Positions 218 through 14,851 of a DNA stretch of 64,000 nucleotides are shown here, piece by piece (the first letter of the stretch is position 1; every line of letters begins with the position of its first letter). The DNA lies in assembly GCA_964607655.1 (NCBI GenBank), contig CAZSKX010000003.1:4160-68159 (forward strand). Direction: 5' to 3'. Below the pieces are notes generated by a model. The model ran no database searches. It saw only the letters and a program-made list of their open reading frames with translations, and was not told the origin of the DNA. The stretch is from an uncultured Candidatus Saccharibacteria bacterium. Its GTDB lineage: Bacteria > Patescibacteriota > Minisyncoccia > Phycocordibacterales > Phycocordibacteraceae. Made by a program: the position numbers and the translations under genes.

Positions 218-1680
<1,463 letters not shown>

Positions 1681-1866
1681 AAGAATAGGCGGAACAAAAC
1701 AATTCATAACATCTTTCTTCCCTGTCGCGAACGACAGGGACTCGTATTTCGAACGTATTTCGTTGTCAAAAAACAGCGTAAAAAACACCCCTCCCGCCTA
1801 AGCGGGAGACTTGCCTATCCTACAGGAAGGCCCTGGGCGGGTCAAGTCCAACATGAAAGCCGGCTT

Positions 1867-2183: not shown

Positions 2184-2885
2184 TTGCCTTTACTCATGCA
2201 AAACACGCACGAGCGAATTATCGTCTCTCTGGGCGGATCACTTATGGTCCCCGATCAGATCGATGTCGACTTCCTCAACCAGTTTCGTGATGTTGTCGTA
2301 AAAAAGATCAATGAGGGTTTCTCCTTTTGTGTCATTGTCGGCGGTGGGAAAACTGCGCGCCGTTATCAAGACGCTGCGAAGAATGCCGGCGAGCTCTCTC
2401 CGGCCGATCTGGACTGGCTCGGTATCCACGCGACACGCTTAAACGCACACCTTCTGCGCGTCCTCTTTAACGACGCTGCCTACCCACACGTGATCAAGAA
2501 TCCGGAGGCAGACATCGACATATCGAAGCCCCTCATCGTCGCGGCTGGCTGGCAGCCGGGATGTTCGACAGACTATGACGCGGTGTTGATCGCGAAGAAT
2601 ATCGGCTCACACCGCCTCGTTAATCTCTCGAATATTGACCACGTCTACGACAAAGACCCAAAGAGACACGGAAACGCAAAAAAGTTTGAAAAAATGTCGT
2701 GGCCAGAATTCCGCGCGATCATACCCGATCATTGGGACCCTGGCCTTTCCTCCCCTTTTGACCCCGTTGCTGCTAAAGAGGCCGAGACACTCGACCTTGA
2801 AGTCGCGATAATGAACGGCGCTCACCTCGACCGCTTCGAGGCCTATCTCGACGGTAAACCGTTCGTAGGAACAGTTATTTCTTAA
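2184..2885 (+). CDS. amino-acid-kinase family protein, UMP kinase-like (archaeal-type PyrH / isopentenyl phosphate kinase-like)
   Basis: N-terminal 'RIIVSLGGSLM' glycine loop and an overall AAK-fold pattern ('VIVGGGKTARRY'). 233 aa. Confidence 0.55.
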   Translation: MPLLMQNTHERIIVSLGGSLMVPDQIDVDFLNQFRDVVVKKINEGFSFCVIVGGGKTARRYQDAAKNAGELSPADLDWLGIHATRLNAHLLRVLFNDAAYPHVIKNPEADIDISKPLIVAAGWQPGCSTDYDAVLIAKNIGSHRLVNLSNIDHVYDKDPKRHGNAKKFEKMSWPEFRAIIPDHWDPGLSSPFDPVAAKEAETLDLEVAIMNGAHLDRFEAYLDGKPFVGTVIS

Positions 2886-10397: not shown

Positions 10398-10526
10398 TGG
10401 TGGGAGTAGACGGATTTGAACCATCGACCTCACGTTTGACCCATCGGCGCTCACTGTTGTTATGGCCACTTACAACAACGAACTTAATCGACGGACGTGC
10501 GCTCTGACCAACTGAGCTATACCCCC
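10398..10526 (-). tRNA. tRNA-like gene with an ~52-59-nt intervening sequence in the anticodon arm (possible anticodon GUC)
   Basis: Reverse complement: GGGGGTA-TA-GCTCAGTTGGTCAGAGC-G-CACGT[59 nt]ACGTG-AGGTC-GATGGTTCAAATCCGTC-TACTCCC-A-CCA. It has canonical acceptor, D and T arms and an encoded CCA. The two anticodon-stem halves (CACGT/ACGTG) are separated by 59 nt. Confidence 0.45.
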
Positions 10527-10533
10527 ACAACAT

Positions 10534-10643
10534 GGTCGGGATGGCGGGGTTTGAACCTGCTGAACCGTTCGATACTATGTTCCCCATTCGCGGCTGCAGT
10601 AGAAGAACGGCGTATACGGCGACATCGATGATGTCTCACCCCG
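10534..10643 (-). tRNA. tRNA-like gene, atypical (D-loop without GG; ~40-nt insertion between the anticodon-stem halves)
   Basis: Reverse complement: CGGGGTG...GCCGT[47 nt]ACGGT...GCAGGTTCAAACCCCGC-CATCCCG-A-CCA. The acceptor and T arm are recognisable, but the gene is 110 nt long. Confidence 0.3.
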
Positions 10644-10690
10644 ATAGCGAAATACCTGAACTGCGCGTACCCTATCACTTCTGTAAAAGA

Positions 10691-10730
10691 AACGCAAAAC
10701 CCCGCGCTTTAGGGCGCGGGGTTTTGCGTT
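10691..10730. terminator. perfect 17-bp hairpin (bidirectional terminator) between 5S and the tRNA-like genes
   Basis: 'aacgcaaaaccccgcgc ttta gggcgcggggttttgcgtt'. Confidence 0.7.
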
Positions 10731-10740
10731 CAAGTGCTCA

Positions 10741-10856
10741 GTTCTGGCGGCTAGCTACTCTCCCTGCCGGTAAAGGCAAGTACCATCGCCGCTAGTGGGC
10801 TTAACTTCCGAGTTCGGAAAGGGATCGGGTGTGACCCCACCGCCAAGCCACCAGAA
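10741..10856 (-). rRNA. rrf: 5S ribosomal RNA
   Basis: The reverse complement 'TTCTGGTGGC...CCCGATCCCTTTCCGAACTCGGAAGTTAAGC...GAGAGTAGC...GCCGCCAGAAC' matches the bacterial 5S consensus and its helix 1 pairing. Confidence 0.85.
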
Positions 10857-11253
10857 CCGAACACTCGAAAGTGTTTCGGTTTTGATCTACGAATATATGC
10901 AAAGGTAATTATTTCAAAGCACAGACAACAACTGTCTGATATACAGAGTTCCGCACAAGAGACTGGACATATTAGTACACCTCGACTCCACGCCTCGCGG
11001 CGCTTCCATCTGGTGCCTATCAACGTAATCATCTCTTACGAGTCTCATAACGATTCCTAATCTTGGAGCACGCTTCCCGCTTATATGCTTTCAGCGGTTA
11101 TCGCAACCCGACATAGCTACCCAGCAGTGCTCTTGGCAGAACAGCTGGTAGACCAGAGGTCAGTTCATCCCGGTCCTCTCGTACTAGGGACAACCCTCCT
11201 CAAGAATCAACGCCTGTAGTAGATAGGAGACCAACCTGTCTCACGCATTTTGT

Positions 11254-11672
11254 TTTAGCCCACATTACTGTGGGGATCGGACTGTAACTTACTCCGGTCT
11301 GGAGCATCAACATTCAGTCTCTACGGGCTTGTCATCGTGAACTTCGCGAAGGGCTCGAGAGTAATCTCGAGCAAAAGAACGTCGATCCGGTGACGGATCA
11401 GGTGCGCACTGATCCGTCACCGGGAAGAGAGGCGCTGTACAGCGCGGCCCTTCGCGAAGTTCACGATTAGATTCCCTCGGTATTACCCACGTGGGGCTCT
11501 ACCGATATCAGTTGATTTGTTCATACGCATTCCTGCGTATGACCGCCGTGATTATTTGTTGGCTTCTACTTTCTCTTTCATAGACGAAAAAACATTTCTG
11601 ATTTGACAACAATCTTCGATGAGGATTCAGACGGTGCGAGTGTCGACACAGGAGTGTCAACAGCCGCACGGT
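11254..11672 (-). other. ~420-nt intervening sequence in 23S domain V (E. coli ~2590-2596 equivalent), no ORF
   Basis: The exon homology 'GGTACGCGAGCTGGGTTCAGA' / 'GCGTGAGACAGGTTGGTCTCCTATCTAC' is interrupted. The insert contains a nested inverted repeat (11336-11465). Confidence 0.5.
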
Positions 11673-12323
11673 CTGAACCCAGCTCGCGTACCTTTTTAAA
11701 TGGCGAACAGCCATACGCTTGGGACCTTCTCCAGCCCCGCGCTAAGGTGAGCCGACATCGAGGTGCCGAACTCCGCCGTCGCTATGGACGCTTGGGCGGA
11801 ACTAGCCTGTTATCCCCAGGGTAACTTATATCCGTTAATCTCTGGCCGCATCTAAGGCGTACCATCGGTTCACTAGACTCTGCTTTCGCATCTGCTTGGG
11901 ATGTCCCCCTCGCAGTTAAGCCCGCTTGTGCTCTTACACTATCGCCACGGTTTCCATTCGCGGCTAGCGGACCTTAATAGACTCCTCCGTTACTCTTTAG
12001 GAGGATAGCGCCCCACCAAAACTACCCGTCACGCACGGTCCCCATGTGGATCCCACATAGGTTAGGCACTGTACATTGCAAGAACGGTATTTCACTGACG
12101 ACTCCACGCCACCCGAAAGCGACGCTTCAAAGTCTCCCGTCTATTCTACGCATGCAACACGCAGGGCCAATACGAAACTGTAGTAAAGCTCCTGGGGTCT
12201 TTTCGTCTAACTACAGGTATCCGGCATCTTCACCGGAAGTGCATTTTCACCGAGCAAGTCCTCGAGACAGTTTCCCAGTCATTACACCATTCGTGCACGT
12301 CGGAACTTACCCGACAAGGAATT

Positions 12324-12523
12324 ACGCTCTTCGATTCCTTTTAGCACGCGAAGGACCATATCTTATCCCTTCTTGGCGAAGGGTTTTGACGTATGGCCTC
12401 TCATTTGAGTCAAGTTGGACGACGTACGGATTACTCCATACGCAGGTAACTTGGCGTATTTTTATTCTGTTTACTCCTACAATCGTCCTAGTCCTTCCGG
12501 ACGCGACTCGCGTCGTGTCCGGA
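12324..12523 (-). other. ~200-nt intervening sequence in 23S domain IV (E. coli ~1917-1925 equivalent)
   Basis: The conserved 'AACTATAATCGTCCTAAGGT' / 'ATTCCTTGTCGGGTAAGTTCCGAC' is interrupted. The insert contains the long hairpin 'ccggacgcgactcgcgtcgtgtccgg'. Confidence 0.45.
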
Positions 12524-13347
12524 ACCTTAGGACGATTATAGTTATCGCCGACATTCACCGGGGCTTACACAGTCCAGCATCACACCGAAGTATGGTACCG
12601 CCCGTGGTTGACCTTCCGGCATTGGTCAGGTGTCACCCCCTATACATCCTCTTACGAGTTCGCAGGGAGCTGTGTTTTTGGTAAACAGTTGCCAGGAAAA
12701 CTTTCGCTGCGGCCGCTCTTGCGAGCGGCAGGCCTTATCCCTAAGTTACGGCCGCTTTTTTGCCGAGTTCCTTGAGGACCTCTTACTCGTTCATCTAGGT
12801 CTTCTCGACCAGACCACCTGTGTCGGTTTGCGGTACGGTCGCACCTATGGTTAATGCTTAGAAGTTTTTCTTGAAACCGCGCTCTCTGCTCTTTCTCCCT
12901 CCGTAGAAGGAAATTGTACCGACGCTCGGGATAATGCGTACCGGATTTGCCTAGTACACGCCCTCACGCAAGTAACTCCAATCCAATAAGAAGCAGCAGA
13001 TACAGCCGTTCGTCACTCCATAGCCCATAAATACGGTCAGGGAATATTAACCCTGTGTCCATCGGGTGCGGCTCTCGCCATCCCCTTAGGCCCGACTAAC
13101 CCTCAGTTGATCACCATAGCTGAGGAAACCTCGGTCTTTCGATGTGCGGGGTTCTCACCCGCATTGTGGTTACTTGTACCGACATTCTCACTTCTGTACG
13201 CTCCACGCTGGGTTACCCCTTACGCTTCAGTGCGAACAGAACGCTCTCCTACCGCGTGCATTCCAGCGAAGGAATGCACACCCGCAATTTCGGCACGACA
13301 TTTAACCCCGATCATCTTCGGCGCAAGGACTCTCGATTAGTGAGCTG

Positions 13348-13390
<43 letters not shown>

Positions 13391-13966
13391 AACTGTCTGT
13401 GAGTCCTCACTTCCTTGTGATGTACTTAATGTCGATTTTGGGGCCTTAATTGGCGATCCGGGCTCTTCCCCTCTCGATCGATGGAGCTTCGCCCCCACCT
13501 TCTAACTGCCACTCGGGCAATGGGTATTCGGAGTTTGATAGGAACCACGAGATTGCTCCCTGTTGGTCCCTTCCAGTGCTCTACCCCCCATTACACTTAA
13601 TAGTGACGCCAGCCCAAAAGCTGTTTCGGAGAGAACCAGCTATTCCCAGGTTCGATTAGCTTTTCACTCCTTACCACAAGTCATCCCAACGCGTTGTACG
13701 ACGAACGGGTTCGGGCCTCCATCTGTCTTTCGACAAACTTCACCCTGCTCATGGTAAGCTCACCTGGCTTCGGGTCGTATATATCCTACCAACGCGCTAT
13801 TAACACTCGGTTTCCCTACAGCTCCGCCCCGGAAGGGCTTAGCTACGCAAGATATATCCACTCGTCGGCTCATTCTTCAATAGGCATGCCGTCACGGATG
13901 CAAGCATCCGCTCCGACCCCTTGTAAGTACACGGTTTCAGTTCTATTTCACTCCCCTCTCGGGGTG

Positions 13967-14007
<41 letters not shown>

Positions 14008-14851
14008 TAGGATGTATTTAGCCTTACCGGTTAGTTCCGGCAGATTCACTCGAGCTATTCATGTCTCGAGCTACTCAAGAATACGAACAAGAGTCGTCAT
14101 GCATTTCGCATACGGGGCCATTACCCTCTAGGGCGCTGCTTCCCAACAGCTTCTGCTATACAGACGATTGGTAACTCTTTCCATACAAGTATGGTGTTCG
14201 CATCTTACAACCCCGCTATCCGAAGATAGCGGTTTGGGCTTTTCCCTTTTCGCTCGCCGCTACTTGGGGTATCACGAGAGTCGCTTTCAATGTGCACAAA
14301 CATAATGCGCACACTGAAAGCAACTCGTATTGTTCTCTTTTCCTCTCGGTACTGAGATGTTTCACTTCCCGAGGTTCGCTCCACACAGGCGTTACCCCGT
14401 GGGTTCCAGTTCAAGCTGGAGGGTTTCCCCATTCGGACATCTACGGATCACAGGCTACAAACCGCCTCCCCGAAGCTTTTCGCAGGTTAGTCACGTCCTT
14501 CATCGCCATCCTAAGCCTAGGCATCCACCGTGCACTCTTAATTGTCTCTCATGCGGAGACCTATATACCACAATCATTATTTGCACTTTGATTACCCCGT
14601 CGCTTTCGCAACGAGGCTTTCATTTACCTTTGCTACCCAGCCTTGCTGGCTCACCAACAAGACTGGGCTATTCGTATGTCAAATGTCACGTGTCCCCTCG
14701 AAACGAAAACCGCCCCCTCGGGGCGGTTCGCGTTTACAAACGCGCGGCATTTCTGCCTATCCCCGGATTAGGTTGGTTTGTAATTTCGTAGACACGTAGA
14801 ACCGAGTATATAGGAGGCGCTAAACCCTGTCAACTTAACCCCTCATCTAAC

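Follow-up and report, generated by a model that had tools for sequence, protein, structure and literature searches.

We found that the 23S ribosomal RNA (rRNA) gene in a 64,000-nucleotide (nt) stretch of contig CAZSKX010000003.1 (hereafter the window, at its full length) is interrupted by a 422-nt insert, and that this insert is very probably a group I intron lacking an open reading frame (ORF), located at large-subunit position 2593 (L2593, Escherichia coli numbering) in a Kaiserbacteria-like genome of the Candidate Phyla Radiation (CPR)/Patescibacteria. Its membership of the group I family is well supported by its structure and by homology, and its catalytic activity is predicted from the sequence. 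The 23S exons on either side of it are 90-92% identical to those of one Ca. Kaiserbacteria metagenome-assembled genome (MAG) and two Parcubacteria MAGs. A preliminary description of the window, made from the sequence alone, had proposed that the insert was either an ORF-less group I intron or a processed intervening sequence (IVS); the core, the guide, the homologues and the covariation presented below support the first of these alternatives.

The host gene is complete on the minus strand (14551..10954; Rfam RF02541, 2311.9 bits) and measures 3598 nt, compared with the 2925 positions of the Rfam model. In the covariance-model alignment of positions 11100-11800, the loop of helix 93 holds 428 nt between GGGUUCAGACCGU and ACAGGUUGGUC (ACCGU and ACAG), where the consensus has only 6 nt between aaCGU and ACAG, which means that 422 nt have been inserted in this loop. 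An insertion of about 420 nt had been described by eye and is borne out by this alignment with the bacterial large-subunit model, the very analysis that the preliminary description had named as able to overturn it. Read in the RNA sense, the 5′ exon terminates with GGGUUCAGACCGU, the last base of which is a U at 11668, the insert (11667..11246, on the minus strand like all the features of the intron given here) begins with GCGGCUG and finishes with CAAAAUG, and the 3′ exon restarts at 11245 with CGUGAGACAGG (starting CGUGAG). Intron position i is thus window coordinate 11668 - i. The earlier limits of 11254-11672 had placed the insert in the right part of the gene and on closer alignment were each 5-8 nt off. 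That the insert occupies an LSU-2593-type site also proved correct, as it follows exactly after the equivalent of U2593, an equivalence which we established by our own numbering of the conserved stretch GGGUU(U/C)AGA(A/C)CGU and, beyond the junction, CGUGAGACAG. The site had been likened to those of both I-CreI and I-CeuI; we take L2593 to be the I-CreI site, the I-CeuI site presumably being near position 1923. The earlier statement that the insert contains no ORF was equally sound: the longest ORF that touches it is a frame of 68 amino acids entering from the exon, and a tblastn search of the insert with 23 intron-encoded LAGLIDADG proteins of relatives returned only noise. The single-motif LAGLIDADG homing endonuclease that is a trait of the L2593 lineage is accordingly missing from the window intron.

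What identifies the insert as a group I intron? The classical R and S elements (GUAGAGACUGAAUG and AAGUUACAGUCC) were recognized by eye in its 3′ third, and helices P2-P9, the P3/P7 pseudoknot, the guanosine site with its bulged A and G-C pair and the terminal G are all present; each of the proposed helices is made up of standard pairs when read in the window sequence. Folding of the whole region is far more favorable than that of its shuffles (z = -11.2). At the center of our assignment is the ten-base internal guide UCACGGCGGU (UCACG-GCGGU, nt 117-126, 11542..11551), which is complementary to the ligated exon junction ACCGU-CGUGA. Its second half, GCGGU (nt 122-126), pairs in P1 with positions -1 to -5 of the 5′ exon (the last 13 nt of which, GGGUUCAGACCGU, lie at 11668..11680), forming a U-1.G122 wobble at the splice site, and its first half, UCACG (nt 117-121), pairs in P10 with CGUGA, the first five bases of the 3′ exon (11241..11245), a helix that RNAalifold also retrieved.

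The core follows downstream of the guide. The P2 hairpin (nt 127-146, 11522..11541), which was also predicted independently, is capped by a GGAA tetraloop and followed by the 5′ strand of P3 (AUCAAC, nt 152-157, 11511..11516), the partner of which is the 3′ strand GUUGAU (nt 357-362, 11306..11311). Next is the P4-P5-P4′ unit (nt 163-191, 11477..11505), where UCGGU and ACCGA (P4, nt 163-167/187-191) surround CCC-ACGU-GGG (P5, nt 173-175/180-182), and then P6, a GGG/CCC helix formed by nt 192-194 and 341-343 (11474-11476 and 11325-11327). P7 comprises nt 347 and 349-353 paired with nt 384-389; its 5′ strand, G-A(bulge)-GACUG (nt 347-353, 11315..11321), pairs with 11279-11284, A348 is bulged and G349-C388 is predicted to bind the guanosine. 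P7 and the 3′ strand of P3 are just 3 nt apart, which leaves no room for P7.1/P7.2 in the window intron. The P8 hairpin (nt 363-377, 11291..11305) leads into the S element, that is, J8/7 plus the 3′ strand of P7 (nt 378-389, 11279..11290), after which the P9 hairpin (nt 394-409, 11259..11274) with its GUAA tetraloop precedes the terminal G (omega-G, nt 422, 11246), which was read directly from the sequence. Both P8 and P9 appear in the minimum free energy (MFE) fold and in the RNAalifold structure.

The strongest support for these helices was found in relatives of the intron. A scan of one genome per GTDB species with a pattern consisting of the S element (AGUCC included), a spacer, the terminal G and the 3′ exon gave at least 120 loci, including the published Thermosynechococcus L2593 intron (locus L089, in a Thermosynechococcus MAG). 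Among the matches listed, nearly all are in CPR/Patescibacteria MAGs, one is the Thermosynechococcus MAG and a few are in MAGs labelled Omnitrophica, Chloroflexota/Anaerolineae, Deltaproteobacteria, Gammaproteobacteria or Hyphomonadaceae. Introns of 213-1034 nt were extracted from 110 of the listed loci, all at the same exon junction, and the window intron can be aligned with them over nt 75-197 and 340-422, its nt 198-339 being without counterpart. For covariation we used the window intron and 65 ORF-less relatives (alignment A2, made with MAFFT; n = 66), counting pseudoknots. Standard pairs fill 93.1% of 4159 cells in this set, versus 33-41% in controls whose 3′ partners were shifted by 1-3 columns, changes on both sides occur in 38 of the 64 pairs, and 0 of 500 shuffles reach any of the five covariation measures employed. 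Compensatory pairs make up the whole of P2 (6/6), P3 (6/6), P8 (5/5) and the base of the 5′-terminal hairpin H0 that is described below (4/4), as well as most of P9 (5/6) and P6 (2/3). P4 and P7 are almost invariant and P5 varies in length among the relatives. G347-C389, the bulged A348 and G349-C388 are the same in all 66 sequences, as is the rest of P7 save for its last pair, which covaries (AU 47, GC 18). The splice-site U.G is present in 66/66, the guide pairs next to it and those of P10 are near-invariant, and in the wider family the guide tracks exon position -4, AACGU exons occurring with GCGUU and ACCGU exons with GCGGU. Additionally, RNAalifold, given a separate alignment of 16 sequences and no structure, recovered H0, P10, P2, P4-P9 and the helix between the exon and the complementary segment that we call the anti-exon.

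On the basis of these predicted helices, the pre-23S rRNA would fold the intron core P3-P9, and the guide UCACG-GCGGU would pair with ACCGU, the U.G wobble falling at the splice site, before pairing with the five bases that open the 3′ exon. Cleavage after U2593 would be carried out by an external guanosine occupying the G349-C388 site in P7. G422 would then take over this site and the exons would be ligated, so that helix 93, adjacent to the peptidyl-transferase center, would regain its normal CGUGAG loop.

The region upstream of the guide is where the window intron is most unusual. The guide is preceded by about 115 extra nt and is consequently found some 120 nt into the intron. The first of these nucleotides form a 5′-terminal hairpin, H0 (nt 1-32, 11636..11667), which is apparent as an inverted repeat and in the MFE fold and whose 4 basal pairs all covary. 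It is followed by the anti-exon ACCGUCUGAAUCC (nt 33-45, 11623..11635), which is complementary to exon positions -13..-1 with a C.C mismatch at -3 and U-1 opposite an A; stacked on this exon/anti-exon helix, H0 completes a 27-base pair (bp) hairpin across the 5′ splice site. The remainder of the expanded L1 (nt 46-116, 11552..11622) includes a U-rich motif, UUUUUUCGUCU, and an AACAA motif, both common to many relatives (alignments A1/A2). This organization is widespread: among the matches listed, about 80 of the 110 introns have, like that of the window, a guide located 58-300 nt from the 5′ end and, upstream of it, a 13-mer complementary at 11 or more of its 13 positions to the last 13 exon bases.

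The anti-exon follows variants of the exon, CAGAC being found with GUCUG, CAAAC with GUUUG and UUUAG with CUAAA. In the 66 aligned sequences the pair at -6 is GC in 46, AU in 18 and GU in 2, and that at -8 is CG in 63 and UA in 3. Near the splice site the helix is imperfect, as -3 is unpaired in 55/66 and U-1 faces A in 58/66 and G in 7/66. At two positions of the helix G.U pairs are common (48/66 and 44/66), a pattern more in keeping with selection acting on the sense-strand RNA than with homogenization of a palindrome at the DNA level. Some CPR introns with a short L1 have a shorter match, GAACC(C) or UUUUAACCC, to exon positions -13..-6; individually these matches are weak relative to shuffles (p = 0.004-0.44), and a short anti-exon in such introns is suggestive only.

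Could this long hairpin, composed of exon -13..-1 and intron nt 1-14 paired with nt 19-45, itself be the catalytic P1, with ACGGCGG serving only for exon alignment in the second step or in some other role? The helix is continuous over the splice site, conserved and covarying on both its exon and intron sides, and it is placed at the very 5′ end of the intron, which is the usual location of P1. Indeed, the 27-bp hairpin was our own first reading of P1, and we rejected it when the homologues revealed the guide about 120 nt downstream with its invariant U.G. In the hairpin U-1 is mostly opposite A and -3 is mostly mismatched (in the proportions given above), whereas the ACGGCGG guide offers the canonical U.G in 66/66; the guide is, moreover, complementary to both exons, and the block that contains it has its homologue in the guide of classical L2593 introns, where no such hairpin exists. 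We consider it very unlikely that the hairpin is P1.

If the guide forms P1, what might the anti-exon do? Our preferred reading is that the distal 8-9 bp of its helix would tether the 5′ exon as a second guide and that the proximal 4-5 bp, in which a conserved mismatch at -3 weakens the pairing, would be displaced by the true guide; tether and P1 would together constitute a pseudoknot-like bipartite exon-binding site. Alternatively, the anti-exon may act as a mask on the splice site that delays splicing. Several points weigh against a self-splicing intron with this arrangement. The very stable 27-bp exon/intron hairpin competes with a P1 of 5 bp, so efficient self-splicing may need help or partial unfolding, and for the distal anti-exon helix and P1 to exist together a pseudoknot is required. 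The AGUCC of the S element, which is invariant, and the terminal G were demanded of the relatives by the search pattern, and the MAFFT alignment is weak in the variable regions. Finally, the Rfam group I model (RF00028) has no match at E ≤ 10 in window positions 11100-11800, which we regard as a weak objection. On the published Thermosynechococcus L2593 intron (L089:4233-4365) the same model reaches just 28.7 bits, for the 3′ part alone, versus a gathering score of 50, and because an established L2593 intron scores no higher than this, we ascribe the miss in the window to insensitivity of the model and not to the absence of an intron. The Infernal search with RF00028 that the preliminary description had suggested as a check would thus have misled on this intron.

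Some of the same observations might be taken to mean that the intron is a decaying or inactive relic, either dependent on a host protein or located in a non-functional 23S copy: it has no homing endonuclease, a very stable hairpin competes over its 5′ splice site, P6 bears a large insertion and the Rfam model does not recognize it. However, the window preserves every core helix, together with the guide, the bulged-A/G-C site and the terminal G, compensatory constraint acts on these positions in 65 relatives as well, and the surrounding 23S sequence scores 2311.9 bits from end to end. Furthermore, CPR genomes usually have a single rRNA copy according to the survey of Tsurumaki et al. (2024, PMC11270868), in which case this would be the only 23S gene. 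A relic is, in our judgment, a decidedly improbable explanation of these data.

The second alternative of the preliminary description was that the insert is a bacterial-type IVS, excised by RNase III without ligation so that the 23S rRNA is left fragmented. Known IVS sites are in helices 9, 25 and 45, and the insert is in helix 93, which counts against this idea. In the predicted fold, the 5′ end of the insert pairs with the upstream exon and its 3′ end is largely unpaired, and since its two ends do not pair together an IVS is not supported. Such sequences are found in the 23S genes of bacteria and probably of the CPR (PMC11270868), and long perfect stems abound in the insert, but an IVS would leave the group I core and its covariation unexplained, and we regard it as extremely unlikely. 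We also reject a group II intron, as 422 nt is too short for one and the group I fold leaves no part of the sequence unaccounted for. Neither RF00029 nor any other group II model, the use of which had also been suggested, gave a match at E ≤ 10, and the six-domain architecture was not found in the insert. A GUGCG at the junction was entertained as a group II 5′ end and rejected, as it implied the wrong exon junction, no domain V is present and the group I fold explains the whole sequence.

Close known relatives of the ORF-less group I intron that we favor are the cyanobacterial L2593 introns of Thermosynechococcus elongatus, Synechococcus C9 and S. lividus C1 (Haugen et al., 2007, PMC1995217). 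They share with the window intron the site, a homologous guide, a GNRA-capped P2, P3-P4-P5, the CCCGUAGAGACU and AUAGUCC elements, P9 and the terminal G. They differ from it in being 744-748 nt long with a LAGLIDADG gene, whereas the window intron has no ORF, and in having about 65 nt of P7.1/P7.2, a subgroup IA-like trait that is absent from the window intron (PMC1995217). Additionally, the cyanobacterial guide begins no more than 10 nt from the splice site, in contrast to that of the window intron, which is about 120 nt in, behind the hairpin and the anti-exon.

That ORF-less group I introns occur in CPR 23S genes, and that 2593 is one of their sites, is already published. Tsurumaki et al. 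(2024, PMC11270868) report that 82% of CPR 23S genes have insertions, that 222 ORF-less group I introns are found in these genes, that 2593 (“23IS12”) is among the recurrent sites and is one at which LAGLIDADG_1 genes predominate, and that the Rfam model recognized only 45% of the 23S insertions. Their introns, as described there, match that of the window in host group, gene, listed site, group I type and lack of an ORF; as there is no Rfam match, the window intron would be filed as uncharacterized by their method. We found no description of an L1 expansion or of an anti-exon in the accessible parts of that survey. More broadly, about 40% of Patescibacteria genomes carry group I introns (Nakagawa et al., PMC13011429). 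Since CPR rRNA introns at 2593 are documented, the window intron is by itself of modest interest, an addition to the many rRNA introns already known from this bacterial group, and it changes little.

The anti-exon is another matter, and we found no description of such a natural feature in the accessible literature. There is a parallel with engineered trans-splicing group I ribozymes, the efficiency of which is raised by extended guide sequences (reviewed in PMC6155759). Like the anti-exon, these sequences supplement a short P1 with a further, antisense pairing to the substrate, an internal loop or mismatch lying between the two helices. They differ in being man-made, in acting in trans and in pairing 3′ of the splice site, whereas the anti-exon is a natural, cis-acting element whose partner is the 5′ exon; the resemblance would be one of logic, with no homology. 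In Tetrahymena pre-rRNA, P1 has a competitor for the final bases of the 5′ exon, the alternative hairpin P(-1). The competing strand is exon sequence in that case, unlike the competitor in the window, which is encoded by the intron and covaries with the exon.

We tentatively propose, giving it a somewhat less than even chance of being correct, that the CPR-type L2593 introns (about 70-80 of the 110 sampled, that of the window included) constitute an undescribed subclass of group I introns. Its members would encode, in an expanded L1, a 9-13-nt anti-exon whose pairing with the 5′ exon is located upstream of the canonical P1 and overlaps it, and which either constitutes a natural bipartite guide or masks the splice site, setting the time of splicing as the ribosome is assembled; they would also have lost P7.1/P7.2 and would escape the Rfam model. 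An anti-exon that covaries with the exon over the 5′ splice site would be a natural case in which to study the way a ribozyme whose P1 has 5 bp retains or conceals its exon in a folding rRNA precursor. Were the subclass real, part of the unclassified CPR rRNA insertions would be ordinary self-splicing introns of this type. The insensitivity of the model has a consequence of its own, which is that surveys relying on the Rfam group I model undercount group I introns in CPR rRNA genes and leave insertions of unknown type. In our opinion nothing here merits follow-up beyond the possible subclass and the failure of the standard model to detect its members.

The part of the window intron without counterpart includes an extension of P6, P6a (nt 200-335, 11333..11468), in which a perfect stem of 19-21 bp stands on P6 and carries three hairpins, one of about 5 bp, a perfect one of 15 bp and a perfect one of 8 bp. 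The nested inverted repeat noticed in the preliminary description is therefore real: its arms, 11336-11354 and 11447-11465, are a perfect 19-nt pair enclosing the perfect 15-bp and 8-bp hairpins, and 0 of 100 shuffles gave 2 matches. P6a is a lineage-specific structural extension of P6, the loop in which, among the matches listed, relatives such as L056, L062 and L036 hold their LAGLIDADG gene. With no endonuclease, the window intron is probably vertically inherited or immobile.

Did P6a evolve as an RNA extension, or did a small mobile palindromic DNA element land in the intron? The absence of any mismatch or G.U from its 19-, 15- and 8-bp stems hints at a recent origin, possibly at the DNA level, P6a has no counterpart among the 110 relatives extracted from the matches listed, and P6 is a hot spot for foreign inserts, which include endonuclease genes and, in L077, a tRNA gene. 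Against such an element, there is no second copy in the 64-kb window and no copy in the JGI metagenome collection, where 31 unrelated single matches share just the 19-mer with short extensions (≤28 nt), and no target-site duplication was seen, although none was searched for. We find an origin from a mobile element doubtful, if by no means far-fetched.

The tRNA gene in L077 (a Paceibacterota MAG) is worth describing for its own sake. The intron at 2505-2976 of this locus has in its P6 loop a complete tRNA-Arg(TCT) gene (2644-2719, minus strand; ARAGORN), so that a tRNA gene is nested within a group I intron within a 23S gene. Two other loci had peculiarities. In L061 (a MAG labelled Gammaproteobacteria), the 458-nt “intron” that was extracted starts with CGTGAGACAG and contains two copies of GAAGATATAGTCC and a run of N, an arrangement which may be tandem, nested or mis-assembled. 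The Thermosynechococcus 23S reference slice contains another intron.

Without its intron the 23S gene of the window is still about 251 nt longer than the Rfam model. In the displayed part of the alignment, its 5′ domain has a 54-nt insertion at model position ~228 (window ~14276-14329) and a 19-nt insertion at ~310, and these may be short IVS-type insertions of the kind reported for CPR 23S genes. The rRNA genes of the window are unlinked and in an unusual order, all on the minus strand: 23S, 5S (10855..10742, Rfam) and an odd tRNA-like gene (Rfam) span 14551..10401, and the 16S gene (1683..218) follows after about 9 kb. This interval contains mostly co-directional genes (FtsW/RodA, a sugar transferase, FolD, SecD and SecF) and one glycosyltransferase gene on the plus strand. 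The neighboring genes are ordinary bacterial housekeeping genes (FtsW/RodA, glycosyltransferases, FolD, SecD, SecF).

The tRNA gene downstream of the 5S gene (10401-10526, minus strand) scores 53.7 bits with the Rfam tRNA model, was not called by ARAGORN, encodes its CCA and has in its anticodon loop a 52-nt insertion, which folds so as to lengthen the anticodon stem considerably. Restoring a 7-nt loop is possible in two ways only, as CCGUCAA or as CCGUCGA, both with the anticodon GUC and C33, and the discriminator base is A73. The insertion is far too short to be a group I intron of the type found at position 35/36 of Patescibacteria tRNA-Asp/Asn (PMC13011429), and no homologue of the gene was found in the fetched loci of relatives. 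Between it and the 5S gene, at 10641-10730, is a GC-rich hairpin flanked by runs of A and U (AAAACCCCGCGC...GCGCGGGGUUUU), which gave weak Thr-leader-like matches on both strands and looks like a bidirectional intrinsic terminator.

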